From positions 181,518 through 245,517 of the IMG/VR virus record IMGVR_UViG_3300047321_000298: a stretch of DNA of 64,000 nucleotides. One strand, 5' to 3'. A program made the translations under genes and the position numbers. Positions 29,904-45,079 of this stretch are shown here, piece by piece (position 1 is the stretch's first letter; each line of letters begins with the position of its first letter). This stretch comes from a virus (Duplodnaviria > Caudoviricetes). A model generated the notes under the pieces. That model had not been told where the DNA came from. It was given only the letters and a program-made list of their open reading frames with translations, and did no database searches.

Positions 29904-29940
29904 ATACACGTTTCGCCCACACGGAAAAGGACATGATCAC

Positions 29941-30240: not shown

Positions 30241-30252
30241 CTTCTGTTTATG

Positions 30253-30281
30253 TTGACGCTTTGTGCACAGGTCCGTATAAT
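30253..30281 (+). promoter_or_regulatory. early promoter/operator
   Basis: TTGACG-ctttgtgcacaggtccg-TATAAT. Confidence 0.8.
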
Positions 30282-30315
30282 CGTTCTTGTGGTTGAGACT
30301 TTCCTGGAGAACGCG

Positions 30316-30537: not shown

Positions 30538-30543
30538 AAAATC

Positions 30544-30750
30544 ATGGCACGTAAAGAGCCCCTGATGGTGCAGGTTAGCAGCAACGGTCAGGTGATCGGC
30601 AAGCTGACGACTCAAGAATTCATGGACTACGCGAAGAAGAACTTCGGCATCGGTAGCCAACGTTTCCTGGGCGACTACGTGAAGTGTTTCAACGAGGGCA
30701 AGGCACGGATAGGTGAGCCGGAACGCGTTGAACTGATCCTCAACAAGTGA
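30544..30750 (+). CDS. hypothetical protein
   Basis: GGAG RBS. Confidence 0.65.
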   Translation: MARKEPLMVQVSSNGQVIGKLTTQEFMDYAKKNFGIGSQRFLGDYVKCFNEGKARIGEPERVELILNK

Positions 30751-30768
30751 GCAGGTTCGGAGAACGAA

Positions 30769-30969
30769 GTGATCAAGCGTCCTGTTGGCGTTAGAAAGGC
30801 TCCTGAGCCGATCATGTGGTCGGTTGAGCATTTCGGCTACTTCCCGCCTGAGTATGGCCGTGAGGTGGCGGTGTTCTGGGACCAAGCTGCGGCCTATGCG
30901 TGCAGCGAAGAGCGCAACAAGTTTAACTACTGCACAGACGTTCAGGTCTATGCGTATGCGGATGAATAG
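30769..30969 (+). CDS. hypothetical protein
   Basis: GGAG RBS, GTG start. Confidence 0.6.
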   Translation: MIKRPVGVRKAPEPIMWSVEHFGYFPPEYGREVAVFWDQAAAYACSEERNKFNYCTDVQVYAYADE

Positions 30970-31015
30970 CGGACGTGTGTCGCGCTAACGATGATGAAAA
31001 AGGAAAGGGTGGGCG

Positions 31016-31222
31016 ATGGCACTAAAGGACGGCAATTATCTAGCCACGTGCAAGGAGAGGAACCCGTTGGCCGCTGCGGTGAACGGGCACCACCGCGTGT
31101 GGCCTAATGCTACGTGTGTGGTCAAGAGAGGATTCGCGAGATTCAAGCGCGACGGTGACGAAGTCTGGAGTTGCAACGCGACTTACGCGGAAGCGCACTT
31201 CAAGCTCGAACCACTCGACTGA
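31016..31222 (+). CDS. hypothetical protein
   Basis: 68-aa ORF in operon. Confidence 0.6.
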   Translation: MALKDGNYLATCKERNPLAAAVNGHHRVWPNATCVVKRGFARFKRDGDEVWSCNATYAEAHFKLEPLD

Positions 31223-31229
31223 TTTACTG

Positions 31230-31258
31230 TTGACGTTTTGTGCGTCGTTCTGTACAAT
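31230..31258 (+). promoter_or_regulatory. early promoter/operator
   Basis: TTGACG-ttttgtgcgtcgttctg-TACAAT. Confidence 0.8.
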
Positions 31259-31295
31259 GGGTTCTGTGGTGATCAGAAACGGACTGGAGAACGAG

Positions 31296-31499
31296 ATGGC
31301 ACTGACGGCAACTCAAACGACTGGCGGGAGGGCTCTTCCTCAGTTCGTGCTTGAAATCCTGGCAACGAGATTTTCCCCGGCTGAAATCAGCATCATTGAT
31401 CAGAACTGGAACCGATACAGCCAGATGTCTTTCAGCAATTCGTGTGCAGACGAATTCCTTCTCCAGGGCGACCTCATACTGATGCTTGAAAGGACTTGA
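31296..31499 (+). CDS. hypothetical early protein
   Basis: ATG 31296 with GGAG RBS. Confidence 0.6.
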   Translation: MALTATQTTGGRALPQFVLEILATRFSPAEISIIDQNWNRYSQMSFSNSCADEFLLQGDLILMLERT

Positions 31500-31711
31500 T
31501 CATGGCAAGGAACTGGTTCATGAGTGGGTGCGATAAGTTCGGCAACCCCGAGGGTCAACGGCAGAACATCACTGAGGTGGTGCTCGATACCGCTGGTGAA
31601 GAAGTTTTTGATGCGAACAGCGGTGAGCAGGAGATGGCTGCTCAGGCACTGGTCGAAAGCGCGTACGGCACGACCGCTGGCTACTGCAACGGCACCTACT
31701 GGACCGAGTGA
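31496..31711 (+). CDS. hypothetical protein
   Basis: Coupled ORF. Confidence 0.6.
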   Translation: MIMARNWFMSGCDKFGNPEGQRQNITEVVLDTAGEEVFDANSGEQEMAAQALVESAYGTTAGYCNGTYWTE

Positions 31712-31717
31712 GAAACT

Positions 31718-31945
31718 ATGACAGCGACTATTATTTTCCGGAACGGACAAGGCGGATTTGTTGAGGCGTTCGAGGCAATTCGCCTTGGCTACGACTACGA
31801 CGGCTATAACCTGTACGCTGGTGGCATCCGCCGTAACCCCATCGAAGTGGTGGAATGCACGGCTGTTGATGTAGCTGAGTCGTCCATTGACGGTGTGAGT
31901 TTCTTCCGTACAGAGACCGGCCGTGTGTACAAGACAATCCAGTGA
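31718..31945 (+). CDS. hypothetical protein
   Basis: 75 aa ORF ending before the bidirectional terminator. Confidence 0.6.
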   Translation: MTATIIFRNGQGGFVEAFEAIRLGYDYDGYNLYAGGIRRNPIEVVECTAVDVAESSIDGVSFFRTETGRVYKTIQ

Positions 31946-31962
31946 GTGGTGACAGAGCCAAG

Positions 31963-31993
31963 AAAAAGCCCGGAATCCCGGGCTTTGCTTTTT
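31963..31993. terminator. bidirectional terminator between convergent modules
   Basis: aaaaagcccgg-aat-cccgggcttt-gctttt. Confidence 0.7.
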
Positions 31994-31999
31994 GGTGAC

Positions 32000-32182
32000 C
32001 TACTGCGTTGCGTGCCAGTCAGCCGCTGTCAGTGACGGGCTCTCACCCGCGTCGAATTCACGGCGGAACCAATCCTCGTTGTCGTAGGGAACGTGCTTGG
32101 CTTCAAGCATGTCAATACCAAGCTTGGTCAGTTCGTGTGACACGGCCGATGCCCAATCATCAAAAGTGCGGTGTGCCGCCAT
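32000..32182 (-). CDS. hypothetical protein
   Basis: GGAG RBS, downstream of the ParE-like gene. Confidence 0.55.
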   Translation of the reverse strand: MAAHRTFDDWASAVSHELTKLGIDMLEAKHVPYDNEDWFRREFDAGESPSLTAADWHATQ

Positions 32183-32198
32183 ACGGGAGTCCTCCGGT

Positions 32199-32522
32199 CT
32201 ATCGGTCTTGGCGAGTGTCCCAGACGCGCAAAAGAGCTATCGCAGTCGGTTCCTCAGAGTACGGGGGTAGAACTTCATAGTGCAATTCATAGCGCCCCGC
32301 CAGACATACCCAGCGATGAACTTCGCGTGCGGGAGGTCCATCGTAGCCGTCAAGCTCTTCACCGAGTCGGTGGAAGTGATCTTGTCCAAGCCGATCTGCT
32401 TCATCGAGTAGAGCATTGACGATACGTCGGGCCGCTGCTCCATCGTTGAATTTTTTCACGTGGTCAGCGATCAGCGCCAGGTCGGACATGGCTTTAGAAG
32501 TAGGTAGGACCTTGACCTTCAC
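32199..32522 (-). CDS. ParE/RelE-family toxin
   Basis: MKVKVLPTSKAMSDL..IADH.......AA.R.......L ... YEL.Y......I.LLRVWDTRQDR. Confidence 0.85.
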   Translation of the reverse strand: MKVKVLPTSKAMSDLALIADHVKKFNDGAAARRIVNALLDEADRLGQDHFHRLGEELDGYDGPPAREVHRWVCLAGRYELHYEVLPPYSEEPTAIALLRVWDTRQDR

Positions 32523-32788
32523 GCTTCGGGCACCGGCTGTTCGTTATCGGTTCCAATGCTGTCGGCCCAGACGCGTGCCTGATCCATCGGGACGAATCGG
32601 CCCGCAGTCACATCGTCCAGTCCTTCCTGAATCAATCGACGCTTCTCCGCTTCTCGTGAGAGAAACTGGACCAGCGCTTTCTTGACGATCCACTGACGCG
32701 GCCGGTCAAGCAGCGCGGAGAGGGCGTCCACTTCCTGCGCTAGTTCGACCGGCACCTGAGCCGTGAGGGTTCGAGTTTCAGCAGTCAC
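32519..32788 (-). CDS. CopG/RHH-family antitoxin (ParD-like)
   Basis: TLTAQVPVELAQEVDAL...DRPRQWIVKKAL..L ... IQEGLDDV.AGR; overlaps the toxin start. Confidence 0.85.
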   Translation of the reverse strand: MTAETRTLTAQVPVELAQEVDALSALLDRPRQWIVKKALVQFLSREAEKRRLIQEGLDDVTAGRFVPMDQARVWADSIGTDNEQPVPEA

Positions 32789-32819
32789 AGGGGCCTCCTA
32801 TTGAAAACTAACTGAGTCT

Positions 32820-32848
32820 ATTGTAAATCAATAAACCCGTCACTTCAA
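32820..32848 (-). promoter_or_regulatory. sigma70 promoter of the ParDE-like operon
   Basis: Minus strand TTGAAG-17 bp-TACAAT upstream of an AGGAGG RBS. Confidence 0.65.
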
Positions 32849-32873
32849 GGAGACGCCACACGGATTTGAGGGC

Positions 32874-33467
32874 TCAGGCTGCGCTCTGTTGGCACGAACT
32901 GAGTTCCGCCTCCAGGGTTAAGAGTCGTTTTGATCGAGCTTTGAGCCGCTTAACGGGCGTCCCGAAATACATACCCCAAGGATCGAGAGACTTCGTCACC
33001 AACGACATCGCACCAACGGACGATCCTTCACCGATCCGACAGCCAGGCAGGATGACAGTGCCCGATCCGACAATGACGTGTCGTCCAAGTCGGACCGGCG
33101 CAACCTTCACATTCAAATACTGACGAGGTACGGTCGGGTTCGTGAGCGCCGCGCCAGAGTAATCGTCCGACACGCTATAGACACGCACACCCTGAGACAA
33201 TCCACAGAAGTCCTCCAGTTCGATGCCTCCACCACCGGCCATAAAGCACATACCTCCGATGTGCACGTATGAGCCGATGCGTATATGCCCGCTCGAAGCA
33301 GACAGGACACTGGGTCCGTCGATACGCACGTTACTCCCGAACGTCATGTTTTCGATGCCGACGACCGTACAGTTTTTCGCGACCCTAACGTTGCTGCCCA
33401 CGGAGGGCGAGCCGAACTGTTTCAATTCTTCTTCGGTCCAGTAGCCTGGATTGAGCGGGTTTTGCAT
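32874..33467 (-). CDS. hexapeptide-repeat (LbH) sugar acetyltransferase, VioB/O-antigen-type
   Basis: YWTEEELKQFG...VGSNVRVAK...DFCGLSQGVRVYSVSDDYSGAALTNPTVP...VIVGSGTVILPG..IGEGSSVGAMSLVTKSL. Confidence 0.85.
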   Translation of the reverse strand: MQNPLNPGYWTEEELKQFGSPSVGSNVRVAKNCTVVGIENMTFGSNVRIDGPSVLSASSGHIRIGSYVHIGGMCFMAGGGGIELEDFCGLSQGVRVYSVSDDYSGAALTNPTVPRQYLNVKVAPVRLGRHVIVGSGTVILPGCRIGEGSSVGAMSLVTKSLDPWGMYFGTPVKRLKARSKRLLTLEAELSSCQQSAA

Positions 33468-33680
33468 GTGAGTCCCTCGCGCGCCGGGGCGAGCTAAAAA
33501 GTGGATTTGCCTTCAGGCCGCCCGCAAACGACGACCCGATGCATCGCCTATACTAGCCAGTGAGGCGAGGAACGGTTTTCGCAAACAAAAGCAAAAAGCC
33601 GCGCCAATTCGATGCTTTGAATGAGCGCGGCAAGTCAGTGTTCGGCAAAACAGGCGGTACGGCTATTCAGCACTTAACGG

Positions 33681-33947
33681 CTACTCGCTCTCAAGTCGCG
33701 AGATTTCCTCATCCACTGTGGGTGGCGTAGGCAGACCGAGTTTTTTGCGTTCAGCGTCCACTGTCGGTCCGGTTCTTTCGTAGCCACCCAGCTTGATTTT
33801 GTGGCGCACAGCGCGCCCGTCAGGGAGCCACCCGTTGAACGCCCAATCGCTGCCATTGATGCGCCCATGCTTGCACAGGAATTCGTGCACCGCGAAAACG
33901 AGCTTCTCAAGCTCACGACTTTCACTTTCCGTGAAGCTGTCGAACAT
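33681..33947 (-). CDS. hypothetical protein
   Basis: ATG 33947 with GGGAG RBS. Confidence 0.6.
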   Translation of the reverse strand: MFDSFTESESRELEKLVFAVHEFLCKHGRINGSDWAFNGWLPDGRAVRHKIKLGGYERTGPTVDAERKKLGLPTPPTVDEEISRLESE

Positions 33948-34012
33948 TGATGACTCCCTCAGATTTGACATAAATCTAATTATCAACAATTGAACGAGCG
34001 TTCACTTTTCTG

Positions 34013-34234
34013 TCAAGGACCTGGCGCAGCAGCGGCCGGAAGCGTTGCTGTTCGCTTCACAATCTCGCCGTCCCGATACTCGAACCCGTTTTCATCCATC
34101 CACGTCTGCGCAGCCTGAATGATCGCGTCGTCCAACATGAGTCTCTCGACCTCGTTGGCGGAAAGGCGAACGCCGGTTCCTCGAAGGCCAGCGCGATAGA
34201 TGCGCGCGTGCGGATTGTCCTTTATCTCTTCCAT
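34013..34234 (-). CDS. hypothetical protein
   Basis: Coupled ORF in the minus-strand cluster. Confidence 0.6.
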   Translation of the reverse strand: MEEIKDNPHARIYRAGLRGTGVRLSANEVERLMLDDAIIQAAQTWMDENGFEYRDGEIVKRTATLPAAAAPGP

Positions 34235-34236
34235 TG

Positions 34237-34467
34237 CTATCCCTGTCGTATGTCTGTCAGGGTCAATGCTCGCAAACGATCATCGTCGTCGTATGGCGAC
34301 CCGTCCGTCAGCGCGCGCCATGAGATATAGACGCCATGAGCCATGCACCGCAGGACGTGTGCGCGTTCACCCTCAGCGGTTTCCGACGCCTGCTGCATCA
34401 ACCTCTTAATTTGTGTTTCCGCATTCCGGGTAATCTGCTGGTGTGTCCAGCGCGTTGGATTGCTCAT
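34237..34467 (-). CDS. hypothetical protein
   Basis: Coupled ORF. Confidence 0.6.
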   Translation of the reverse strand: MSNPTRWTHQQITRNAETQIKRLMQQASETAEGERAHVLRCMAHGVYISWRALTDGSPYDDDDRLRALTLTDIRQG

Positions 34468-34775
34468 CGCGTGTTAGCCGATTCCCCGGCTGGCGTCCAA
34501 CGCGGAGCCAACTGATCTTCGATGCGGGGGCGCTCTGTGAATCCAAGCCGAACCAAAAACTCGCGAACCTGTTCTTCGGTCTCGAACGGCCTAAAGTGTT
34601 GGGTGCCTGCGCTAAACCCCGGCTGGCAAATTTCGACCACAGGATAAGTACCAGACATCGCTTTGCGGCCGAACCGAAAAACTGCACCGGGTGCCGCGCG
34701 CTTGCCAACCTCGTCATTCATCGCGATCATCCAGCCGTCGATGGGTTCTGCGATAACCTTGGGACTGTCTTCCAT
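34464..34775 (-). CDS. hypothetical protein
   Basis: GGAG RBS. Confidence 0.65.
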   Translation of the reverse strand: MEDSPKVIAEPIDGWMIAMNDEVGKRAAPGAVFRFGRKAMSGTYPVVEICQPGFSAGTQHFRPFETEEQVREFLVRLGFTERPRIEDQLAPRWTPAGESANTR

Positions 34776-34809
34776 TCGTTAGTTCTCCACAATGTCGATG
34801 ACTGGTTGA

Positions 34810-35001
34810 TTAGAGTTTACCGCCGACAGGTGAATCGAGGATGGCGTTGATGTTTTCGATATCGCCAAGGCCCGACAACTTGATCAGCTTGGTGAGGTTT
34901 TGATACGAGACACTGATCGTCTGAGCTTCAACATCAATCTCGTTTTCGGCCACGATGTCTAGCACCAGTTCCTGCAGATCGGTTCTTCGCGGTGTGCTCA
35001 C
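34810..35001 (-). CDS. hypothetical protein
   Basis: GAGG RBS, GTG start. Confidence 0.55.
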   Translation of the reverse strand: MSTPRRTDLQELVLDIVAENEIDVEAQTISVSYQNLTKLIKLSGLGDIENINAILDSPVGGKL

Positions 35002-35057
35002 GTTAAGTCCTCATCAATGTAAATATCTGGCTTCTGCGTTTCGCCCGCAGCCGCCTG

Positions 35058-35285
35058 TTATTTCTTTTTGCCGTGCAGAATGAAAATACCGGGCGCTAGG
35101 TGCGTGATGTCCGGATCGGCCGGACCCTTTGCATAGCAGTGACCCGTTTGCGTGTCGAAGATAGCCCACCGCCGACCGCTCGAATACGCGTCTTTCCAGC
35201 GAAGCGCCGAATCGTAGTCCGTGAAAGTGTCCAAGCTGTCCAGGCATTCACCCGTACTCTCGTAAATCTTGACCTCGTAACCCAT
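35058..35285 (-). CDS. hypothetical protein
   Basis: ATG 35285 with AGGAG RBS. Confidence 0.6.
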   Translation of the reverse strand: MGYEVKIYESTGECLDSLDTFTDYDSALRWKDAYSSGRRWAIFDTQTGHCYAKGPADPDITHLAPGIFILHGKKK

Positions 35286-35298
35286 AACCGCCCCACTC

Positions 35299-35601
35299 CT
35301 AACTGTTCTGTACATCGTCTAGCGCTTGGACCGCATCGCTGAGGTCCGTCAGGTCCTCAATCTCATCGAGCGCTACGATTGCTGTATCGAGACTATCAAC
35401 CGCAGCTTCCGCTGTCTCCCCTCGCTGCCCTGCCCTCAAACTTTCCGGCATGTTATCGAGTGCTTCCTGCTCTTCATCTCGCACCGCTTCGAGTGTGGTT
35501 CGGATACTTTCGCCCTCCGCTTTCAGTTCTTCGATCAGCACCTTCAACGCTTCAAGACGCGAACGCTGCGTCTGGATGATTTTTCGTCTAGTGCCGTTCA
35601 T
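35299..35601 (-). CDS. coiled-coil phage protein
   Basis: MN..RRK.......LE.....EEQEALDNMPESL..G.RGE pattern seen in small phage proteins. Confidence 0.7.
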   Translation of the reverse strand: MNGTRRKIIQTQRSRLEALKVLIEELKAEGESIRTTLEAVRDEEQEALDNMPESLRAGQRGETAEAAVDSLDTAIVALDEIEDLTDLSDAVQALDDVQNS

Positions 35602-35605
35602 AGGA

Positions 35606-35848
35606 TTAGAGTTGAGCGCGTCCGGAATCCGTCAAGCGCACGGCTCTATACATGAGCCCCTGCCCTTTGGCGATAAAACAGCTAGGCGCGCTTGACTGCA
35701 CCTCTTCGTCGCTCACGAGTTCAGCGAGCCCCTTCGCCATGAGCGCATCGAGCGCCGATCCGTAGCACTCTCCATACGGGCTGAATGGTGCCTCTCCTAG
35801 CCACTGTAGCAACCGGCGTTCTGTGCTGTTCAGTTCGATCTGTGTCAT
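35606..35848 (-). CDS. putative winged-helix-like small protein
   Basis: ATG 35848 with GGAGG RBS; L...ERRLL..L ... L.AKGLAE ... VRLTDSGR. Confidence 0.55.
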   Translation of the reverse strand: MTQIELNSTERRLLQWLGEAPFSPYGECYGSALDALMAKGLAELVSDEEVQSSAPSCFIAKGQGLMYRAVRLTDSGRAQL

Positions 35849-35859
35849 CCGGCCTCCGC

Positions 35860-35894
35860 TTATGCACAGGGTTGTGCACCGAAATTGTGGACAA
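35860..35894. promoter_or_regulatory. DnaA-box-like sites (candidate origin region)
   Basis: TTATGCACA (35860-35868) fits TTWTNCACA; TGTGGACAA (35886-35894) has one mismatch; upstream of parA. Confidence 0.4.
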
Positions 35895-36083
35895 CCTCCA
35901 TCCCCTCTGCAAGCCGATTTTCTCTGCATTTGTGTGCGCGGTCGCGGGGCAGACAGTTAGTTGTGTTTTGCGGCAGTCGCCGAAAATTTCCCCAGCGCCC
36001 TGCCCTCCCCTACCGTCGATCCTTCATCCTAGTTCTAGCTTTCTCCCGCAAACCCAGGCTGGATAAGGCTTACCCAGGGAAAA

Positions 36084-36118
36084 GTTAACTTGCAGAAGAT
36101 GAGTTAACCGTATACATT
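36084..36118 (+). promoter_or_regulatory. parAB promoter overlapped by three GTWWAC sites
   Basis: TTGCAG(36090)-17 bp-TACATT(36113); GTTAAC 36084 and 36103, GTATAC 36110. Confidence 0.5.
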
Positions 36119-36144
36119 CCGACCAATTCGCCATTTTACGGAAG

Positions 36145-37428
36145 TTGCAGCGAAAAATGGCGACCACTTCAGTAAATAACCACACTGCCAATGAAGGGGA
36201 GTCCAAGATGCTCGTTGCCAAACCAATCGTATCTATCGAACACTCTGTCAAGCACACTCCGAACCGTGTGGCCCTAGACGACATTGAGTTCATCGCACAG
36301 AACGCGAGCGAGATGCTGATGAATGTGCGTGAGAGCATGCTTGCTCCGCATCCGCGAAAACACGCGCCTGTGTTCACAACCTCACAACTCGCGTCGCTCT
36401 GCCAGGTGGATCGCAAGAAGATCAACTATTACTGGGAGAAGCCTGAACTCGGCCTGCCCCAAGGCACAGTGCTGCCGCGTACGCGCGAATTCACGCTGGT
36501 CGAAGCGCGCGAATGGGTCAAGAAAGTTGGCCCGTACCTGAAGCGGCCGGACGGTGTTAAGGGCAAAAAGATTGCAATCGGAAACTTCAAAGGGGGCGTC
36601 TCCAAAACTACAACAGCGATGACTCTGGCTCAGGGCCTGTCGCTGCGCGGTCGGCGCGTGCTGATAATTGATCTTGATCCGCAAGCATCGCTCACCGCGT
36701 TGAACGGAATCTTGGCTGACAGCGAAGTCAATGAAGACCAAACGATTCTGCCACTCATTTACGGTGAAGCGGACTCGCTCGAATACGCGATCCAGCCGAC
36801 GTACTGGGATGGTATCGACCTCATTGCGGGCAGTCAGTCTTTGTTCAGCGCTGAATTTTACCTTCCCTTCAAGCAGTCACGCGAACGCGAATTTCGTTTT
36901 TGGGAAGTGCTGGAAAAGGGCTTGGAACCTCTGCTCGATCAGTACGACATGATCATCATCGACACGCCCCCTGCCCTCTCCTACGTTACGATCAACGCGT
37001 TCATGGCCGCAGACGGCCTGATTGTTCCGACTCCGCCGAACGCACTGGACTACGCATCGTCCACGCAGTTCTGGTCGCTGTTCACGGACTTCGCACGGAG
37101 CATGAAACAGATCGTGCCGGACCTGAACAAGCACTTCGATTTCATCCACGTCCTGCTCGCTAAAGTCGATCAATCGCAGGCAGCAACGTTCGCCGTGCGC
37201 GAGTGGATTAACCGCACGTACGAGCGTCATGTGCTGCCGGTTGAGATTCCCACGACGACCGTGACATCGAGCGCATCGACCGAGTTCGGGACCGTCTACG
37301 ATATCTCGAAGTACGACGGCAGCAATAAAACCTACCAGCGGGCGCGTGAAGCATACGACCGATTTGCAGAGATGATCGACCAGGAGATTTTCGCGCTGTG
37401 GACCTCTGAACTGGAGGTCGCAGCATGA
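36145..37428 (+). CDS. parA: ParA partition ATPase (type Ia, N-terminal HTH)
   Basis: Deviant Walker A GNFKGGVSKTT, IDLDPQASLT, IIIDTPPAL; N-terminal HTH extension; start may be ATG 36205. Confidence 0.96.
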   Translation: MQRKMATTSVNNHTANEGESKMLVAKPIVSIEHSVKHTPNRVALDDIEFIAQNASEMLMNVRESMLAPHPRKHAPVFTTSQLASLCQVDRKKINYYWEKPELGLPQGTVLPRTREFTLVEAREWVKKVGPYLKRPDGVKGKKIAIGNFKGGVSKTTTAMTLAQGLSLRGRRVLIIDLDPQASLTALNGILADSEVNEDQTILPLIYGEADSLEYAIQPTYWDGIDLIAGSQSLFSAEFYLPFKQSREREFRFWEVLEKGLEPLLDQYDMIIIDTPPALSYVTINAFMAADGLIVPTPPNALDYASSTQFWSLFTDFARSMKQIVPDLNKHFDFIHVLLAKVDQSQAATFAVREWINRTYERHVLPVEIPTTTVTSSASTEFGTVYDISKYDGSNKTYQRAREAYDRFAEMIDQEIFALWTSELEVAA

Positions 37429-38456
37429 GCATTAAGGAGAAAATGGCGGCCCGAACTGCGGCGATTGCAAGCCCCAGCGGTAACCGGCCAGTCGAACCGC
37501 TAGCTCGCCCGAAAACTGGTCCAGGTCAGTTTCTGGCCGCAATGCCGATCCTTGCAGAGAAAGAGGAAGAACTGGAAAAGGCGAACGCTGAGAATGCAAG
37601 TTTGCGCGAGCAACTTGAGCAGGCGTTGGCGAATGGAAATCCATTGGGCTCCGCCGTTGAGGTTCCGCTCGATCAACTTCATGAGGTCCCTGGGCGTCGG
37701 CGCTACATGCCCCGCGAAAAGTACATCGAACTTCGCGACAACCTGAAAACCACCGATTTGATTCATGCGGTGGTCGTCCTGCCACGTGAATCAGGTGGCT
37801 ACGAAATCTGGTCCGGACACCATCGGGTGGACGCGTATCGCGAGCTTGGCCGCACCACGATCATGTGCGTCATGGGCAAGGCTGAAAAGGCTTCTGTCAG
37901 CGCCGGGGCGTTCTACGCAAACCTGATGCAGTCGGACCTGACCGATTTCGAAAAGTACCAGGGCTTCAAACGAATTCAGGAAGAAAACCCGGGCATCACG
38001 CAAGCGCAGATGGCGGAGCGTGCGGGCGTAGCAACTTCCGTCCTTTCCCGGTTGATGTCATTTGAGCAGCTACCGGAACCAGTCCTGCAGATGCTGAACG
38101 AGCGCCCTGCTTTGCTTGGTGCGACCTCTGGCAGCGCACTCTCCGGACTGGCCGCAGAGGGGAAAGCAGAACGTGTAATTGAAGCTGTGCAGAAACTGGC
38201 GAAGGGCGAAATTGACCAGACACAGGCCGTGAAGCTGGCGAGCACGGAACCGGCAAAGCCCAAAGAAACGAAGAAGGCAGAGCGGGTAAAAGTTCGCGTT
38301 GGCAAAGCCGTGTATTGCAGTATGAGCACGGCACGCAACGTTGTGCGGATGGAATTTCAATCGGAAGAGGAAGCCGCAGCAGCTAGGGAAGGGCTAACGG
38401 CATTTCTGGAAGCACGGGCCGAAGAATTACGGGCGCAGGCACAGGACGAAAAGTGA
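37425..38456 (+). CDS. parB: ParB/RepB/Spo0J partition protein
   Basis: ParB N-domain (YEIWSGHHRVDA), HTH ITQAQMAERAGVATSVLSRL; ATGA overlap with parA. Confidence 0.95.
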   Translation: MSIKEKMAARTAAIASPSGNRPVEPLARPKTGPGQFLAAMPILAEKEEELEKANAENASLREQLEQALANGNPLGSAVEVPLDQLHEVPGRRRYMPREKYIELRDNLKTTDLIHAVVVLPRESGGYEIWSGHHRVDAYRELGRTTIMCVMGKAEKASVSAGAFYANLMQSDLTDFEKYQGFKRIQEENPGITQAQMAERAGVATSVLSRLMSFEQLPEPVLQMLNERPALLGATSGSALSGLAAEGKAERVIEAVQKLAKGEIDQTQAVKLASTEPAKPKETKKAERVKVRVGKAVYCSMSTARNVVRMEFQSEEEAAAAREGLTAFLEARAEELRAQAQDEK

Positions 38457-38493
38457 AAGTCCTTTTGAATCAAGGACTTCCAAGTTGGAACTT
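38457..38493. promoter_or_regulatory. candidate parS/centromere palindromes
   Basis: aagtcctt/aaggactt inverted repeat and ttccaa-g-ttggaa dyad immediately after parB. Confidence 0.4.
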
Positions 38494-38533
38494 CTGAGGA
38501 ACACGCAATGAACTGATTCTGAGGCGGGAAAAG

Positions 38534-38565
38534 AAAAAGCCCTCGGCTGGAACCGAAGGCTTTTT
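38534..38565 (+). terminator. terminator after parB
   Basis: aaaaagcc-ctcgg...ccga-aggcttttt. Confidence 0.6.
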
Positions 38566-38711
38566 GCATAAAAGGGCTCGGCTGGAAATCCGTTCCCCGC
38601 ACTACACTCACCGACTGGAAATCGGCAAGGACCTCAACAATCCCGAGTGTAGCGGAACGAGATTGACAGTCAAGTGAATTCAGCCATTTTCTGAAAAATG
38701 GACTGCACAGC

Positions 38712-39944
38712 ATGTCAATCGCGCAACACTCCGTTGCTGGCGAGGGTGAAGCTCGCCCCCAGCAGTCAGTACCCGCCGAAGTCTCAAACGATGCAGCCGC
38801 CCTTGCCGCGTTTCGCTGCGATTCGATCAACCTTCCGTGGGTTATCTTTCGCGCTGCATTCCGCGCAAACCAGATCGAACAACTGCCAGCACGCGCACGT
38901 TCTGTTCTCGCTGCCCTAGCCCGTACAGTTGACGCTAATCGCCCGTTCGCTGCGATCTTTGCCCGCCGTGAGTTATTGACCGGCCGCGCAATGCAATCGA
39001 TGCGCACGTTCTATCGCAGCCTGGACGACCTAGAAGCCGCAGAACTCATCGAACGTCGTCCGCAATCCCGCTACGTTGAAGTCGGTCGATTCGGCCGTGC
39101 GAATTTGCATCTCACAGAGCGCGCAGTGGTTCTTCTTGGATTGGTTGAGGTGCAGGCCGAGCAACTCCCTACAGCGCCCGCAGAAACGGCTCAGACGCCC
39201 TCACATGCCGTCCGGATGCAGACCGCAGAACCCAGCGTTTCTTCGTTTATCCGCCCGACTGCCAACGTGGCAGACGGTGCTATATATGGTGATCTTTACC
39301 CTGCTTCTTCTCAAAAGAGACAACCGGGGCAACTGCCTGCGGACCTCCAACGTCTGCGGTCCCTGGGTTTCATTGATTTCCTGATTTTCAAACTCATGAA
39401 GGAAGCGCGAGAGAATCGCAAACGGCTCTCCGACGTTGTTGAAGCTACGTGGGAACATCTGAAGGCTGCGAAGCGACCGATCAACTATCTGCGTGCGCTG
39501 CTTCGTAGCCCTGTCGATTTCGCTCATCAATTGCGAAGCAAGGCCGAAGCTCGACACGCGGCACAACGTCAAGTCGAACGCGCAGCGAACGCGGAACTCA
39601 TTGCACAACGGTGTGCAGGACAGACGTTTATCGACACTGACGGCCAGCGCAAGTACGTGCTCGATACGGACGGCCAGTCCATGACGGTGTACGTTCGTGG
39701 CGAAGGGGTGGGGCGGCAGGCTGCAGGCTGGAAGGAGCAGTTCGCAGAGGCGCTTGAGAAGGGACGCATTCGTCGTGCTGCGCTCGATAACTTGGAGGCG
39801 TTTGGTCCGGCACCCACACAGACAGCGAGAGCGTCAGCAGGGGAGGGCCACACCGCGAACGTAAAGCCACCGGTTACCGCTCAAGTCCGTAGCCACATCG
39901 CTGGATTGCGTGCCATTCTTCGCACACAGCGGAGTATTATGTAA
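38712..39944 (+). CDS. plasmid replication initiator (Burkholderiales parAB-associated Rep, winged HTH)
   Basis: Follows parAB; wHTH-like LLTGRAMQSMRTFYRSLDDLEAAELIER; resembles 'replication protein O'-type initiators of Burkholderia plasmids as I recall them. Confidence 0.7.
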   Translation: MSIAQHSVAGEGEARPQQSVPAEVSNDAAALAAFRCDSINLPWVIFRAAFRANQIEQLPARARSVLAALARTVDANRPFAAIFARRELLTGRAMQSMRTFYRSLDDLEAAELIERRPQSRYVEVGRFGRANLHLTERAVVLLGLVEVQAEQLPTAPAETAQTPSHAVRMQTAEPSVSSFIRPTANVADGAIYGDLYPASSQKRQPGQLPADLQRLRSLGFIDFLIFKLMKEARENRKRLSDVVEATWEHLKAAKRPINYLRALLRSPVDFAHQLRSKAEARHAAQRQVERAANAELIAQRCAGQTFIDTDGQRKYVLDTDGQSMTVYVRGEGVGRQAAGWKEQFAEALEKGRIRRAALDNLEAFGPAPTQTARASAGEGHTANVKPPVTAQVRSHIAGLRAILRTQRSIM

Positions 39945-40238
39945 GGAGTACATACTACATTAGACGAACGCTGCGCTTGGGTGTCGTGTTGATGGTTTGC
40001 GATTCCGTGAAACACTTCGGAACCTAGCTGAAAACGGGCAAACGTTTGGCTATTCAGCGACTTGGCGCTAGGTCCTCAGTTTGTTTCACGGATTTGTCAG
40101 GAAATCCCTACGCGGATCGAGCAAAACGGCTCGTTTTCTGGCCTAGCGCACGCGGCGCACAGCATTCGCTGGAAACTGTAGTGAATGCTACGTATTTTGT
40201 AATGACGAAATTCTTGGCCACCACTCGCGGAAAACGTA

Positions 40239-40266
40239 TTGACGTTTTGTGCAGACGGCGTAAAAT
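40239..40266 (+). promoter_or_regulatory. early promoter/operator
   Basis: TTGACG-ttttgtgcagacggcg-TAAAAT, with a leader similar to the 26770/29289 copies. Confidence 0.8.
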
Positions 40267-40304
40267 CGGGTTTGTCGGATGTGAACGAACCGGAGCAAGA
40301 ATAA

Positions 40305-40478
40305 ATGGCCTCAAACGAAAAGGTGTACTTCATCGAAACCGATGACCTAGCGAAGCTGGATCGTCTAGCCGACCGGATGATGGGCGGCACTGATCAGGAA
40401 CGCGATTTCGGTCACACGCTCTGGTACGTCCTGGACCGGGTACGCAAGAACGAGCTTGACGCGAGCGTGTTGAAGTAA
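40305..40478 (+). CDS. small hypothetical protein (57 aa, not in ORF track)
   Basis: MASNEKVYFIETDDLAKLDRLADRMMGG...; GGAG RBS directly after the promoter. Confidence 0.6.
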   Translation: MASNEKVYFIETDDLAKLDRLADRMMGGTDQERDFGHTLWYVLDRVRKNELDASVLK

Positions 40479-40517
40479 CGCGGCACCGGCAGTCTCTATA
40501 ACTATGTGGAGTGCATC

Positions 40518-40787
40518 ATGTGTGTAGCTCAAATCAGCAGCGCCCAAGACGAACTGATGGCCCTGATCCGCAAAGCTCAGTCGCGCGGCCTGAACGTAGT
40601 GAATATCGAATTCGAGGAAAGGGCTCTGGCGGAAGAGGGCGCGTTCATCATCGACACCGTGCAGGTTGCAAGCAAAGGTTTCGGACCGTATCCGCTTGGA
40701 CATATCGCGGCACGAGAGCGTATTGCCGAATGGCTGTGGAAGCAGTCGCCCGCGTACAAGGCTCCGTCCTTCCTCGGTCGTATCTGA
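40518..40787 (+). CDS. hypothetical protein
   Basis: GGAG RBS before ATG 40518. Confidence 0.6.
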   Translation: MCVAQISSAQDELMALIRKAQSRGLNVVNIEFEERALAEEGAFIIDTVQVASKGFGPYPLGHIAARERIAEWLWKQSPAYKAPSFLGRI

Positions 40788-40975
40788 TGGACGAGCCGAC
40801 TTTCGATGTACCTCTGACGGAGGGCGAAATCATCATAATCCGCGAAGCCCTTCGCAAGTTTCCGCGTTCGCACGAAATGGCAACCCTGTACGACGCAGAG
40901 ATTCTGAGCGCGGACCGCAAGATGACTGAGTTGCTGGCAGCTTCATTCGATCAGCATATGGGTCTCAAACCATGA
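40787..40975 (+). CDS. hypothetical protein
   Basis: TGATG coupling; MDEPTFDVPLTEGE... Confidence 0.6.
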   Translation: MDEPTFDVPLTEGEIIIIREALRKFPRSHEMATLYDAEILSADRKMTELLAASFDQHMGLKP

Positions 40976-40997
40976 CCAAACTGATCGGGGGCTGACG

Positions 40998-41168
40998 ATG
41001 GACGCCTTCGAGCGCCAGCAGCGAGCATACGAGCAGGGAGAGAGGGCGTATCACGCGGACAAGCCGCGCGAGAAGAATCCGAAGCGTGGAGAACTTGAGC
41101 GCGAGGCTTGGTTTGCGGGTTATGACCGCGCAAAAGAACTGGACGAGTCGAACGACTTCGACGCTTGA
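40998..41168 (+). CDS. ribosome modulation factor (RMF)-like protein (56 aa, not in ORF track)
   Basis: MDAFERQQRAYEQGERAYHADKPREKNPKRGELEREAWFAGYDRAKE follows the RMF pattern (RA..G..A......NP.....R..W..G[WY]). Confidence 0.6.
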   Translation: MDAFERQQRAYEQGERAYHADKPREKNPKRGELEREAWFAGYDRAKELDESNDFDA

Positions 41169-41190
41169 TTAACAAACCCAAACGGAAATT

Positions 41191-41787
41191 ATGGAAAGTA
41201 AAACAATTGTGCTAGACGGTGACGGGGTGGTGTTCGATTACCGCAAGGCGTACCCAGGAGTCTGGAAAGCTGCCTTCGGCACCGACATCATTATGGTGGA
41301 ACCGAATGCCTACCACGCGCATACGGCGCACGGTGTCCAGTTCGAGAGCGCGGAGCAGGAAGCGCAATTCTTCGAACACTTTGGTGAAGACGCGTGGGCA
41401 ACGATGCCGCTTATGGATGGTGCTGACGAGGCGTGTTCGCTGCTCGTCGGCTGTGGCTACAAGCTCGTGATCGTCTCGTCAATGAATCCGAAATTCGAAG
41501 CCGCGCGTTTGAGCAACTGCAAGCTGCATGGCCTGCCCATCTCTGAGGTCTACGCAGTGAAGCGGGCAGGGGAGGGCAATCCAAAGTTGCAGGTGCTGCA
41601 CGATCTGCAGCCGGTCGCTCTGGTTGACGATCTGGTGGACAACTTCGAGGGGCTGAACCAGTCGATTCACTCAGCGTTCATCAACTACCAACGCTTCGAC
41701 TGTCCTAGCATCGGTCGCACGTTGCTGTCAGATAGCGTGCACGGATCGCTTCTGGAGTTCGCGAAGTTCTGGACCTATCCGAAGTAG
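41191..41787 (+). CDS. HAD-superfamily phosphatase (5'-nucleotidase-like)
   Basis: Motif I LDGDGVVFDY, motif II VIVSS, Lys in GNPK, motif IV LVDDLVDN. Confidence 0.85.
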   Translation: MESKTIVLDGDGVVFDYRKAYPGVWKAAFGTDIIMVEPNAYHAHTAHGVQFESAEQEAQFFEHFGEDAWATMPLMDGADEACSLLVGCGYKLVIVSSMNPKFEAARLSNCKLHGLPISEVYAVKRAGEGNPKLQVLHDLQPVALVDDLVDNFEGLNQSIHSAFINYQRFDCPSIGRTLLSDSVHGSLLEFAKFWTYPK

Positions 41788-41816
41788 TTGCACAAAACGT
41801 CAACATCCCCTATACT
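41788..41816 (+). promoter_or_regulatory. early promoter in a reversed operator motif
   Basis: TTGCAC-aaaacgtcaacatcccc-TATACT. Confidence 0.75.
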
Positions 41817-41845
41817 GAATCTGTGGGTTCACTAGGGGATGCAAA

Positions 41846-42007
41846 ATGTCTGAGTTAGCGCGGCACCTTCGATTTAACGTACTGGTAGCCAGGCGCGCTT
41901 TTCCGGACAATCCCGCGTGGACCGAAGAAGCAGCGTTCATAGCTGGCTTGCTGATCGCGGGTGAGTACGACCGCGATCTTTTCGAAGAAATGCTGGAGGC
42001 ACTCTGA
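41846..42007 (+). CDS. small hypothetical protein (53 aa, not in ORF track)
   Basis: MSELARHLRFNVLVARRAFP...; AGGGG RBS after the promoter. Confidence 0.55.
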   Translation: MSELARHLRFNVLVARRAFPDNPAWTEEAAFIAGLLIAGEYDRDLFEEMLEAL

Positions 42008-42008
42008 C

Positions 42009-42221
42009 ATGGCGCTTACCATCAAAAAGGAAAGCCTGATTGACTGGTTTGTCGAAGACGACAGCAAGCCGCCTGCTACTCGTGTTGTTGCCCGCATCAC
42101 GAAGACGACCCAGGGTTACCATGTGGCGCTCCGACTGTTCGATTTCAAAGAGCCGTACTTCTTCCAGTACTTTAAGGAAGCAAAGGCATGTGCGCTCGAT
42201 CCTGCTTCGCAACCCGACTGA
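42009..42221 (+). CDS. hypothetical protein
   Basis: ATG 42009 with GGAGG RBS. Confidence 0.6.
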   Translation: MALTIKKESLIDWFVEDDSKPPATRVVARITKTTQGYHVALRLFDFKEPYFFQYFKEAKACALDPASQPD

Positions 42222-42239
42222 CTCTCACAGAGGGAACAA

Positions 42240-42467
42240 ATGAATAAGATTGCAGTGTTTGACCAGATCGACGCGGCATTGATTGCAGGTGAGCTTCCGC
42301 CGAAATGCGCTAATGCTTGGATGGCGGCTGGCGACAACGCCACCGGTACGGAAGGGTCAGACGAGTTCAAGATTTCGGCCGTCGAATCGTTGTCGCTGAC
42401 CGCACCGTTTCAAGAAAACGAGTCGGTTCGTGAATACTTCGATACCAAGTTCGGCTACCAGTGGTAA
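42240..42467 (+). CDS. hypothetical protein
   Basis: GAGGG RBS. Confidence 0.6.
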   Translation: MNKIAVFDQIDAALIAGELPPKCANAWMAAGDNATGTEGSDEFKISAVESLSLTAPFQENESVREYFDTKFGYQW

Positions 42468-42498
42468 CCGCCGACACCTCTCACAAAGACCAACTGCC

Positions 42499-42762
42499 AT
42501 GACCATTGACGAAGCAAAGAGGGCCGGGGCTAACGCATTCATCGCGGGCTTGGGCCGCGCTCCCGCTCTGAACCACGGGTTCACCACTGACGCTATCGCT
42601 TCGGCACGCGAAACTGGCGGCAAACTGACGGATTTGCTGGCCGCCTACGGTACGGGTTGGACCGTGGCGAACCTGGCAGAGAACGCCCCTCTGCCGGACA
42701 TGCCGAGCGTCATCGAATTCAATCGCCTGATGGCGGTTTGCACAGTTGGGCTGAGCGGCTAA
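42499..42762 (+). CDS. hypothetical protein
   Basis: MTIDEAKRAGANAFIAG..APALN...AYGTGW. Confidence 0.6.
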   Translation: MTIDEAKRAGANAFIAGLGRAPALNHGFTTDAIASARETGGKLTDLLAAYGTGWTVANLAENAPLPDMPSVIEFNRLMAVCTVGLSG

Positions 42763-42780
42763 CCGGAATATTCTGTGGAA

Positions 42781-43155
42781 ATGAGACAACTCAGTAATCT
42801 CGCAAAGCCCAAATCTGGCGAAGCCTGTAACGGCTGCGGATACTGTTGTACCGTGGAGCCGTGCATGCTCGCGCAAGATTTCCTGCACAGCAGCAGCGGG
42901 CCGTGCGTTGCGCTGGAAACTGTGGAGGGCAGATTCATGTGCGGGCTCGTGCGTAACCCACTAGGGTACCTGTTCAAAGCAGCGCACCCGGAGATGGAGG
43001 TCCCTGTCCTAGAAGCTCCCCCAGCGGTGAAGGAAGGGTACCAGCTATCCGTCAACTTCGCAGCGGCCTTGGGCATCGGCATGGGCTGCGATGCGGACGA
43101 CGATGAGAAGTCGGCCGCTTGGGCTCAAGCCTTCTACCCACGACCTTCCGAATAG
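42781..43155 (+). CDS. Cys-cluster (Zn/Fe-S) protein, YkgJ-like
   Basis: CNGCGYCC...PC...PCVAL...CGL. Confidence 0.65.
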   Translation: MRQLSNLAKPKSGEACNGCGYCCTVEPCMLAQDFLHSSSGPCVALETVEGRFMCGLVRNPLGYLFKAAHPEMEVPVLEAPPAVKEGYQLSVNFAAALGIGMGCDADDDEKSAAWAQAFYPRPSE

Positions 43156-43158
43156 ACG

Positions 43159-43204
43159 AAAAAAGCCCCGCAACCTGATCTAAGTTTGCGGGGCTTTTGC
43201 TTTT
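43159..43204. terminator. bidirectional terminator
   Basis: aaaagccccgcaa...ttgcggggctttt between convergent genes. Confidence 0.75.
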
Positions 43205-44591
43205 ACTCAGCGTGTACCAGAAGCTTATGCGCCACCGGTTGTTGCTGCTGCACGTGCGTCAAATGCTCGTCTGACTGTAGCTTTTCGAGCGCGGCCTGAA
43301 TACAAACCTCCTGCCACTGGCTAGGAGTCCAAGCGACGCTCTGATCAGCGTGCTCGCGCATCAACTGTTCGATGATATCGGGCCAGTCCTTCAGGATTTT
43401 CTGCGCCATCCGTAGTCTGTTTTCCTGATTGATGTACCCGACCTCGATCACCGAATCGACACGGCCAGGGCGAGTCGAAATGCCGGAACCTTCTTCCTTG
43501 ACAACACCCAGCGCCGGGTCTATCTGCTCGATATGGTTTGTCGTGATGATCAAGAAAACACCGTTCAGCGACGACACTCCAGAAATTTGATTGAGCACAC
43601 AGTCGAAGCTCAGCGACTTGTGCTCCGTCTGGTTCTCGCGTCCGTGGAACACGTTATCGAAGTCTTCGAATAGCGCGATACAGGGAACGTTCATCGACTC
43701 CCAGTGCTCAATGAACTCCTGATCGGACAGTGTGGCCAGATAGAAGTGGTTGATCGGGATTCCAAGATTCTGGGCCACGGCTTTGGCTATGCTCGATTTA
43801 CCAGTTCCTCCCGGACCGTGCAGCAACCAACCACGACGCCATGGAATCTGGCGGTCCAGATACCAGTCACCCATCTGGAGCCAGCGCGAAGCCTGCTCGA
43901 AATACTTCAAGATGCGAGGCTCAAAGAAGAGCCCGTTCAGAGCATCTTCATCATCCCGGATCGCGTAGGTATCCGGCGCATACTTGAATGAGCGATCAAG
44001 CGTCAGATCAGGACGCAGCAATGAGCTTCCGCTGACTGTGTTACCCACCGGGGACGTCTCATCAATATAACCAGAATCGGCCTGCTTCCGCTTATAGTTG
44101 GTGAGAGCAGCGCCCATACCCTTCTCGGAGCCTATGATCTTGCGCACCCAGAAACGAGAATCGCGCTTCTTGCTATTCAGCTTCAGATGCTCATCCCAGG
44201 AGTCGAGAGCGTCCGACGTGAGCTTGTCGAAGTTGATCAGCCCGCGAATCGCCCGGATTTGAAGCTGGCTCGAATCCGCGTTCACGACCATGAACGCGCG
44301 CTTGCCTACGTACACCGAAATCGGAGCCGGGAGCCGGAATGGGACAAGGACTGCGTCCTTGCGTCCGCGCATGGTCGTGACTCGATGCGAAACGTAGTTA
44401 AGCAGGCCAGACGGCAGCGGTTTGTAGTTGCGCTTCAGGTAGGCGTAAACAACCGGCGACAGGTCGTGATCGAAGCTTGCCTTGATCAGCACAAAGCTCG
44501 AAACGTAGCCCATAGCATTCCTAATCTGCTGCCATCCGGCCGTCAGTGCCGCAGCCAACCCACCTAGTCCAAGAGTCGTCAGGTTGATCAT
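43203..44591 (-). CDS. membrane-anchored AAA+ ATPase, BCS1-like
   Basis: N-terminal hydrophobic segment; WRRGWLLHGPGGTGKSS, ALFEDFD, ITTNH...DPAL...RPGRVD; ATG 44591 overlaps the upstream stop. Confidence 0.85.
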   Translation of the reverse strand: MINLTTLGLGGLAAALTAGWQQIRNAMGYVSSFVLIKASFDHDLSPVVYAYLKRNYKPLPSGLLNYVSHRVTTMRGRKDAVLVPFRLPAPISVYVGKRAFMVVNADSSQLQIRAIRGLINFDKLTSDALDSWDEHLKLNSKKRDSRFWVRKIIGSEKGMGAALTNYKRKQADSGYIDETSPVGNTVSGSSLLRPDLTLDRSFKYAPDTYAIRDDEDALNGLFFEPRILKYFEQASRWLQMGDWYLDRQIPWRRGWLLHGPGGTGKSSIAKAVAQNLGIPINHFYLATLSDQEFIEHWESMNVPCIALFEDFDNVFHGRENQTEHKSLSFDCVLNQISGVSSLNGVFLIITTNHIEQIDPALGVVKEEGSGISTRPGRVDSVIEVGYINQENRLRMAQKILKDWPDIIEQLMREHADQSVAWTPSQWQEVCIQAALEKLQSDEHLTHVQQQQPVAHKLLVHAE

Positions 44592-45079
44592 GTGGCGGCA
44601 CCCCATGCCCAGGAGTTCGCTGCGTCATCAGGATGAAACATCGCTTGGCAGATTACTTCGGCCTTGTCCCGGTCCACGATGCTGTAGCGCCGTTCGTGGT
44701 TGGCGAAGCGCGCGTGTGCGTACGCATGCTCCAGAGCATCAGCGTAGGAATCAGCCGATGCGATCAGGTGCGTTGTGTCCTCTTCCACCGTATTCATGTA
44801 CACCAGGAATTTACGGTAACCATCGGTTGTTAGGTCCCGCACCGGAAAGTCAAAGCCATGCGCCGTAAGCGAGGACGGAATCAGACGACCCACAAACTGA
44901 TCACCGTATTTAAATGGTGCCCAATCTGGAGCCTCCACCACTTTGATCATCTGCGAACCCGCAAACTCACCTGAAATCACGGGACCACACAACTGCCCGT
45001 AGAACAGAATGGTGGGCCAGAACTCGCGCGCTAAGGCGTGGTCGGTGTTGGCTACGTAGAAACGAATGTCACTGTTCAT
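44588..45079 (-). CDS. hypothetical protein
   Basis: Coupled between dnaB and the AAA gene. Confidence 0.7.
   Translation of the reverse strand: MNSDIRFYVANTDHALAREFWPTILFYGQLCGPVISGEFAGSQMIKVVEAPDWAPFKYGDQFVGRLIPSSLTAHGFDFPVRDLTTDGYRKFLVYMNTVEEDTTHLIASADSYADALEHAYAHARFANHERRYSIVDRDKAEVICQAMFHPDDAANSWAWGAAT

Follow-up and report, generated by a model that had tools for sequence, protein, structure and literature searches.

A plasmid-type parA-parB-rep cassette in a 245-kb jumbo myophage of the RSL1/BcepSauron lineage suggests plasmid-like carriage

A jumbo myophage genome assembled from a rhizosphere metagenome (IMG/VR record IMGVR_UViG_3300047321_000298, a single contig of 245,517 bp) carries a parA-parB-rep cassette of the type found on Burkholderiaceae plasmids. 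The cassette lies in the final 64 kb of the contig (positions 181,518 to 245,517); this whole stretch of 64,000 nucleotides is called the window below, and coordinates count from its first letter. The same cassette is found at the same place in two Logan contigs, L003 and L004, and in the IMG/VR contig L037. Taken with the lack of an integrase, the evidence from the cassette is best read as carriage of the phage genome in the manner of a plasmid. We hold, with modest confidence, that the cassette is probably a working low-copy plasmid module of Burkholderiaceae type that was acquired once, and that the 245-kb phage is a phage-plasmid in a Paraburkholderia- or Caballeronia-like host.

The ends of the contig share an exact 127-bp overlap, so the assembly closes into a circle, which answers the question of circularity raised by the original prediction, a note made from the letters of the window. 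IMG/VR places the contig in its class of direct terminal repeats, with a CheckV completeness of 100%. Near-identical DNA is present in at least four further rhizosphere runs, and a DNA search against cultured phages gave no match. The window encodes the portal, major head protein, tail sheath, and tail tube, as well as DnaB, two further helicases, SbcC, a sliding clamp, and a clamp loader, in agreement with the sheath/tube, head, and replication genes named in the original prediction. The major head protein is 82.5% identical to those of the Burkholderia phages BcepSauron and BcepSaruman, 76.5% to that of Ralstonia phage RSL1, 73.5% to that of BCSR5, and 61.7% to that of Achromobacter phage Motura. 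Gene-by-gene maps against BcepSauron and RSL1, the two relatives mapped in full, revealed that the whole genome is collinear with both, which identifies the phage as a jumbo myophage of the RSL1/BcepSauron lineage and gives a name to the large-myovirus lineage that had been proposed. The earlier remark that the window lacks an integrase extends to the whole genome, where a search that included positive controls found no tyrosine or serine recombinase.

Three genes in tandem (36208–39944) encode ParA, ParB, and a 410-residue winged-helix protein, here called Rep, as expected from the claim that a complete partition and replication cassette of Burkholderiales plasmid type is present (Table 1). 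Many plasmids of Burkholderia, Paraburkholderia, and Caballeronia have the same triad as their replication/partition region. The parA start is most likely ATG 36208 and not the flagged TTG 36145 (open reading frame (ORF) 36145–37428), because a GGGGAG precedes the former and the upstream frame is closed in L004. ParA matches the Pfam families AAA_31 (5.5e-37) and CbiA; among NCBIfam models it matches SopA and TIGR03453 'partition RepA' (1.5e-61, under that model's cut-off). It has an N-terminal extension of ~120 residues, typical of type Ia ParA proteins: the ATPase domain begins at about residue 140 of the 427-residue ORF, and the TIGR03453 and SopA alignments begin at residues 50–80. The start of parB overlaps the end of parA by 4 nt. 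The two proteins have the makeup of a type Ia ParABS pair, with a Walker-type, N-terminally extended ParA beside a helix-turn-helix (HTH) ParB that contains a ParB_N domain. Divergent from parA, an 81-residue ORF (35606–35851, minus strand) follows a good ribosome-binding site and has no family match; it is 83% identical in L003, 99% in L037, and absent from L004, and possibly encodes a small regulator.

The third gene is the candidate initiator. Its 488 relatives come nearly all from Caballeronia, Paraburkholderia, or Burkholderia, many of them carry the NCBI name 'Replication protein O', and on plasmids the gene always lies directly after parA-parB. An AlphaFold model (predicted local distance difference test (pLDDT) score 80.7) divides Rep into a winged helix (res. 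43–142), a disordered linker (res. 146–205), and a C-terminal domain (res. 210–365). The winged helix finds structural matches at Z ~8 among MarR-type regulators and, lower down, the N-domain of the staphylococcal RepA initiator, and the full model matches generic winged-helix proteins only. Modeled alone with AF2, the C-terminal domain reaches a pLDDT of 92.8; its weak DnaD-like rows in the structure search (Z 4.6–4.8) and the feature-based scores to RepC and RepA C-domains (0.80–0.83; RP-C_C 0.83) serve as leads only. Rep itself has no Pfam or NCBIfam match, and a sequence search of solved structures returned nothing under E 0.36. Its remote relatives match HTH_36 (29 of 48) and RP-C, the RepC N-terminal family (14 of 48; best E 3.1e-6), and also DnaD_N and RepL, while neither Rep nor these remote relatives match Rep_3 or a related Pfam family. 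The name Rep given in the original prediction is well founded in gene context, the winged-helix fold, homology to plasmid proteins, and weak remote homology, and it stands as the label of a candidate initiator; as an assignment to an initiator family it does not hold, since no such family is matched.

Table 1 Features of the parA-parB-rep cassette and its surroundings, in window coordinates.
Feature	Position	Strand	Description
Control region before parA	36083..36163	+	Direct AGTTAAC repeats at 36083 and 36102 flank a weak promoter-like block
parA	36208..37428	+	Type Ia partition ATPase, 406 aa; start from comparison with L004 and L003
parB	37425..38456	+	Centromere-binding protein, 343 aa; ParB_N, HTH_ParB, TIGR00180
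Candidate parS	38467..38490		AATCAAGGAC, then 13-bp palindrome TTCCAAGTTGGAA; directly past the parB stop
Candidate counter-transcribed RNA gene	38524..38673	-	Promoter TTGACT-16-TACACT at 38673-38646
Palindrome CCATTTTCTGAAAAATGG	38684..38701		Ten nt ahead of the rep start codon; in all 11 replicons aligned
rep	38712..39944	+	Candidate replication initiator, 410 aa; from context and winged-helix fold
Split inverted repeat	40005..40091		CCGTGAAACA - ~68 nt - TGTTTCACGG; arms at 40005 and 40082
Toxin-antitoxin pair 1	26171..26732	+	Gp49/HigB-like toxin 26171-26458; HI1420-type antitoxin (dnstrm_HI1420) 26460-26732
Toxin-antitoxin pair 2	32200..32788	-	RelB-like antitoxin 32519-32788; ParE-like toxin 32200-32522; 4-nt overlap
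Lineage-specific region	21400..45079		~24 kb that include the cassette; tail module on one side, dnaB on the other

The spacers of the phage cassettes were aligned with up to eight plasmid or plasmid-like replicons, giving 11 replicons in the parB–rep spacer alignment, and every non-coding element conserved in the plasmids is also kept in the phages. The phage contigs and Caballeronia pSBC1_4 share the control region before parA; in pSBC1_4 both AGTTAAC repeats read GTTTAC, and the two repeat copies have therefore changed together. An inverted repeat, TTCGCCATTTT / AAAATGGCGA, at 36127–36163 spans the parA start region, and the whole segment probably acts as an operator. Past parB, the element reads AATCAA-N-GAC followed by the palindrome (at 38478), and it is the sole perfect copy in the genome. 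The palindrome TTCCAAGTTGGAA occurs twice in Burkholderia glumae bglu_2p, and a Caballeronia counterpart, TTAAGAGTCTTAA, occupies the same position. We take this palindrome as the candidate centromere (parS), with the split repeat at 40005/40082 as a second candidate, each in one copy. A further palindrome, of the pattern CCATTTT-N-AAAATGG, lies just ahead of rep and may be an autoregulatory site.

The parB–rep spacer also contains a candidate antisense RNA gene. The predicted RNA runs from ~38639 to 38524 on the minus strand and comprises a stem-loop (~38629–38607) and a terminator hairpin (~38565–38534) followed by a T-run. Its promoter is one of only two promoter-like sites detected in 4.6 kb by a consensus scan, and both hexamers, the most invariant blocks of the spacer, are unchanged in the 11 replicons. 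Across these, compensatory changes occur in 9 of the 18 hairpin pairs and pairing is kept in 95.4% of cells, values that none of 500 shuffles reached. G-U pairs in the hairpins number nine on the minus strand vs one on the plus strand, and the window's own spacer sequence folds at z = -3.15. The Rfam family ctRNA_p42d gives a weak match at the same place and on the same strand (22 bits, E 0.3, threshold 50). Iterons and repeated palindromes were found neither in the three cassette spacers nor genome-wide, and the lowest G+C stretch of rep (39300–39450) descends only to 0.50. Beyond rep, the arms of the split repeat GTGAAACA - ~68 nt - TGTTTCAC are the only invariant blocks in nine replicons. 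The repeat lies 3' of rep in the phages and 5' of parA in the plasmids, and it is a candidate origin or centromere element.

Both toxin–antitoxin (TA) pairs noticed near the cassette in the original prediction are present upstream of it (Table 1). In the first, the Gp49/HigB-like toxin scores 22.8 bits against Pfam PF05973, just below the cut-off of 23.9, and the antitoxin scores 46.7 bits against PF21716; this pair is also found in L003. In the second, the RelB-like antitoxin has an NCBIfam match (1.7e-4), and the ParE-like toxin is 89% identical to an L004 protein with a weak ParE_toxin match; in L004, the RelB/ParE-like pair lies directly beside parA. Both pairs are confined to the lineage that has the cassette and are absent from BcepSauron and RSL1.

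The closest known systems are the parA-parB-'Replication protein O' modules of Burkholderiaceae plasmids such as bglu_2p (NC_012718.1), pSBC1_4 (NZ_CP049160.1), and plasmid 1 of Burkholderia sp. PAMC 28687. Gene order, spacer elements, and the split repeat are alike, and the proteins are 53–68% (Rep), 45–74% (ParA), and ~48% (ParB) identical; the phage module differs in the position of the split repeat and in its carrier. In the 141-kb bglu_2p the triad stands at the very start of the record, and it is also present on Burkholderiaceae plasmids of 280–600 kb. In the 50 kb of bglu_2p that were inspected, insertion sequence elements and genes for chemotaxis are found, which gives it the look of an ordinary plasmid, one that a cultured strain maintains. 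The literature searched yielded no experimental work on this replicon family and no paper on partition genes in RSL1-like phages.

In its design, the module resembles the repABC replicons of Alphaproteobacteria (p42d, pTiR10), which lack iterons and have a two-domain initiator with a hydrophilic linker (reviewed in PMC6090056). The order of partition ATPase, centromere binder, and initiator is the same, and the best named match of ParA is the 'partitioning RepA' model TIGR03453. Both have a spacer before the initiator gene that contains, on the opposite strand, an antisense RNA (a candidate here) with a terminator hairpin, both lack iterons, and in both the initiator, here a candidate, has a DNA-binding domain at the N-terminus that a hydrophilic linker joins to the C-terminal domain. 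Unlike repABC, the module belongs to betaproteobacterial hosts, its Rep has no RP-C or RP-C_C match, its ParA falls below the TIGR03453 cut-off, and its predicted RNA is ~115 nt long with two hairpins vs ~50 nt in repABC. Because it fails the RepC test, the phage module is no member of the repABC family, but it appears to work like one. It also differs from iteron-type theta replicons (Rep_3, RepA/pi/RepE, TrfA), as it has neither a direct-repeat array nor an initiator of those families.

A mechanism can be proposed by analogy with repABC replicons and P1. In this scheme, parA, parB, and rep would be read from a promoter before parA, with ParA and ParB repressing at the AGTTAAC repeats; ParB would load on the palindrome past parB, and ParA would separate the copies. 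The minus-strand RNA of ~115 nt would pair with the rep leader and limit Rep synthesis, thereby setting copy number and incompatibility. Rep would bind DNA through its winged helix, open an iteron-free origin located within rep or at the split GTGAAACA repeat, and recruit the host replisome, while the two TA pairs would make losing the element costly. For lytic growth, the phage would use its own DnaB, clamp, and clamp loader, giving the element two modes of replication, one as a plasmid and one lytic.

Phage-plasmids are an established kind of element, and this genome has what their operational definition calls for, namely phage core genes and plasmid replication/partition genes on one replicon (PMC7969092). 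It resembles P1 (repA/oriR, parA-parB-parS, phd/doc), N15, and SSU5 in lacking an integrase and in having a plasmid initiator (a candidate here), a type Ia ParAB pair, and addiction modules, and it likewise has a separate lytic replication apparatus. ParA is 26% identical to P1 ParA over 85% of its length. Unlike the known phage-plasmids, it belongs to the RSL1/BcepSauron lineage, uses a different replicon family, has no repressor or iterons that could be found, and is known from metagenomes alone. Most described groups measure ~50–110 kb (Pfeifer et al. 2021, PMC7969092) vs 245 kb here. A jumbo plasmid prophage of Bacillus thuringiensis, pBtic235, is described as circular, extrachromosomal, and larger than 200 kb; judged by that description, it is unrelated in host phylum, phage lineage, and maintenance genes (PMC9700832).

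Several observations weigh against plasmid-like carriage. The genome contains 11 tRNA genes and a full replisome, like those of virulent jumbo phages, and TA pairs and partition genes occur also in phages that are not plasmids. No Peptidase_S24 gene was found in the 245 kb, and the one XRE helix-turn-helix gene is far from the cassette; no immunity repressor was recognized. Of 72,556 plasmid records (PLSDB), none encodes the head protein or carries the phage, and among 185,579 species representatives the protein appears on one short contig of a metagenome-assembled genome and in no bacterial isolate; all sightings of the phage come from metagenomes. On the side of the initiator, the C-terminal domain of Rep resembles no known structure clearly (best Z 5.2), neither Rep nor any other product of the genome matches RP-C or RP-C_C, and no initiator family is matched directly. 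The temperate phage-plasmid of the original prediction stands in its myophage lineage, plasmid-type cassette, circular and non-chimeric assembly, and lack of an integrase; it falls short in temperate behavior, as neither a CI/LexA-type repressor nor a lysogen was found.

These points leave room for a carrier state, or pseudolysogeny, which we consider unlikely, though it is the alternative that survives best. The module would then keep unexpressed or slowly replicating genomes from dilution in slow-growing rhizosphere hosts, and stable immune lysogens would not form. All the evidence that the cassette is functional fits this equally well, as does the failure to recognize a repressor; moreover, pseudolysogeny has been discussed for jumbo phages (PMC7824862), and jumbo phages make up a disproportionate share of persistent non-temperate infections (bioRxiv 10.1101/2024.12.31.630880). 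Yet a regulated initiator, antisense control, and two addiction modules exceed what passive persistence needs, and the persistent jumbo phages of the latter study, when screened, proved to be without ParA and Rep.

It is rather improbable that the cassette serves the lytic cycle, with Rep firing early theta replication on the host machinery and ParAB positioning or separating phage DNA in the absence of any plasmid state. The cassette does adjoin phage replication genes (AAA ATPase, DnaB, helicase), and the NCBI name 'Replication protein O' follows the lambda initiator. Against such a role, relatives with the same replisome manage without the cassette. The five cultured relatives, RSL1, BcepSauron, BcepSaruman, BCSR5, and Motura, have virion and replisome genes in common with this phage, but ParA, ParB, and Rep were found in none of them by tblastn of all phage records and direct genome searches. 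ParA is likewise missing from four IMG/VR relatives, drawn from a set with head proteins 79–88% identical: G009 (230 kb, 97% complete), G010 (217.6 kb, terminal repeats, 100%), G012 (172 kb, 72% complete), and G014 (119 kb, 50%). In the control searches of this set, where BcepSauron reappears as G013, 10 of 12 records yielded dnaB, and L037 yielded ParA. Furthermore, copy-limiting antisense control, here a candidate, and type Ia partition suit low copy number and not runaway lytic replication, and the nearest homologues all reside on plasmids.

The cassette sits in a lineage-specific region whose genes have no homologue in BcepSauron or RSL1 (Table 1). In RSL1, the genes flanking this region are less than 1 kb apart, and the distance from the head gene to dnaB is 7 kb in G010 vs 31 kb here. 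L003, L004, and L037 all retain the region of small genes upstream of the cassette; on the other side, the AAA ATPase, DnaB, and helicase genes are kept in L004 and L037, and L003 stops just after rep. Contigs of other samples skip or replace the stretches 29235–30234, 31501–31718, and 34010–34445, so the upstream small-gene region is highly polymorphic among near-identical phages, and the cassette is kept. Just past the cassette, an operon encodes a 56-residue homologue of ribosome modulation factor (RMF) (40998–41168; Pfam PF04957, 35.4 bits, above cut-off). In four other rhizosphere runs, 40969–41205 is swapped for 38 other bases, which means that the RMF gene is present in some phage variants and absent in others.

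Within this variable setting, the cassette is vertically inherited in a phage sub-lineage and is under purifying selection. The four phage Reps form one clade (Shimodaira–Hasegawa approximate likelihood-ratio test 98) nested among Rep proteins of Paraburkholderia and Caballeronia plasmids; this nesting, obtained from the Rep phylogeny that had been recommended as a check, speaks for one capture event and hints at the host group. A further Rep, from a short contig (2 kb) of unknown context, groups with the phage clade. The ratio of nonsynonymous to synonymous substitution rates (dN/dS) is 0.04 for parA (against L004), 0.10–0.12 for parB, and 0.14–0.27 for rep, all within the phage clade and at dS ~1. 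The window ParA is nearest to that of L004 (91%), the ParBs of L003 and L004 are nearer each other than either is to the window, and L037 has a Rep 95% and a ParA 100% identical to those of the window. Such discordant similarities among the three genes suggest that parts have been exchanged between the phages, as expected for incompatibility determinants. Base composition, considered as a sign of recent transfer, is uninformative because plasmid copies of the cassette have a G+C content of 52–59%, as low as that of the phage.

A selfish or decaying passenger, that is, a plasmid module gained by recombination and of no benefit to the phage, would fit the hypervariable, indel-rich location of the cassette and the apparent exchange of its parts. 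It is very improbable: none of the three genes is disrupted in any of four diverged phage genomes, their dN/dS is far under 1 (dS ~1), the cis elements are kept, and neighboring genes vary between samples while the cassette stays. That this single metagenome-assembled contig is a chimera of phage and plasmid, which the original prediction named as a way for it to be wrong, can be dismissed for practical purposes, as the independent assemblies L003, L004, and L037 have the same junctions, near-identical contigs from runs X2–X5 span from neighboring genes into the cassette, and contig depth in run X2 is 91–102 over the cassette and flanking phage genes alike.

Three points of the phage-plasmid reading are new: the replicon family, its proposed antisense control, and the phage lineage, which has been studied for biocontrol and whose members in culture were obtained and propagated as plaque formers. 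RSL1-like and BcepSauron-like phages have been studied as strictly lytic candidates for biocontrol or therapy against Ralstonia and Burkholderia. If the reading is true, the gain of one ~4-kb module is enough to change the lifestyle in the RSL1/BcepSauron jumbo group, rhizosphere Burkholderiaceae have an additional vehicle for gene carriage of 245 kb, and relatives should be screened for the cassette before use in biocontrol or therapy. The comparison also defines the conserved control elements, including the candidate antisense RNA, of a widespread and seemingly unstudied Burkholderiaceae plasmid replicon. A more far-reaching proposal, which we put forward tentatively and regard as doubtful, is that Burkholderiaceae plasmids and this phage use a repABC-like replicon outside Alphaproteobacteria, where reviews confine the design, with an initiator at most remotely related to RepC, and that a virulent-type jumbo phage lineage captured this replicon and became temperate with neither an integrase nor a classical repressor.

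Two other sets of records were considered as carriers of this replicon. The IMG/VR 'provirus' records of 141 kb from B. glumae were rejected as phage-plasmids with the same replicon, as they match no head or sheath query and the inspected 50 kb of bglu_2p look ordinary. The jumbo-sized record L038/G002 (IMGVR_UViG_3300047322_001237, 278,988 bp) is rated 100% complete, its ends overlap by 127 bp, and it encodes a parA-parB-rep cassette related to this one, with a Rep that is 61% identical. Beyond the cassette, G002 has just three genes in common with this phage and is not RSL1-like, having neither its head protein nor a Phage_sheath_1 match; it may be a phage or a plasmid.

Three further genes are of note. 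Between the second TA pair and the cassette, the minus strand encodes a hexapeptide-repeat (left-handed beta-helix) acyltransferase-like protein (32874–33467; Pfam Hexapep 6.8e-11). A DNA methyltransferase gene (55751–56515, minus strand; PHROG 67, 4.7e-78) lies within the replication module and has no BcepSauron or RSL1 homologue. The DnaB gene of L004 (L004 14618–17320) encodes a protein of 900 aa with intein splicing and LAGLIDADG domains, and the window DnaB is an intein-free protein of 454 aa.

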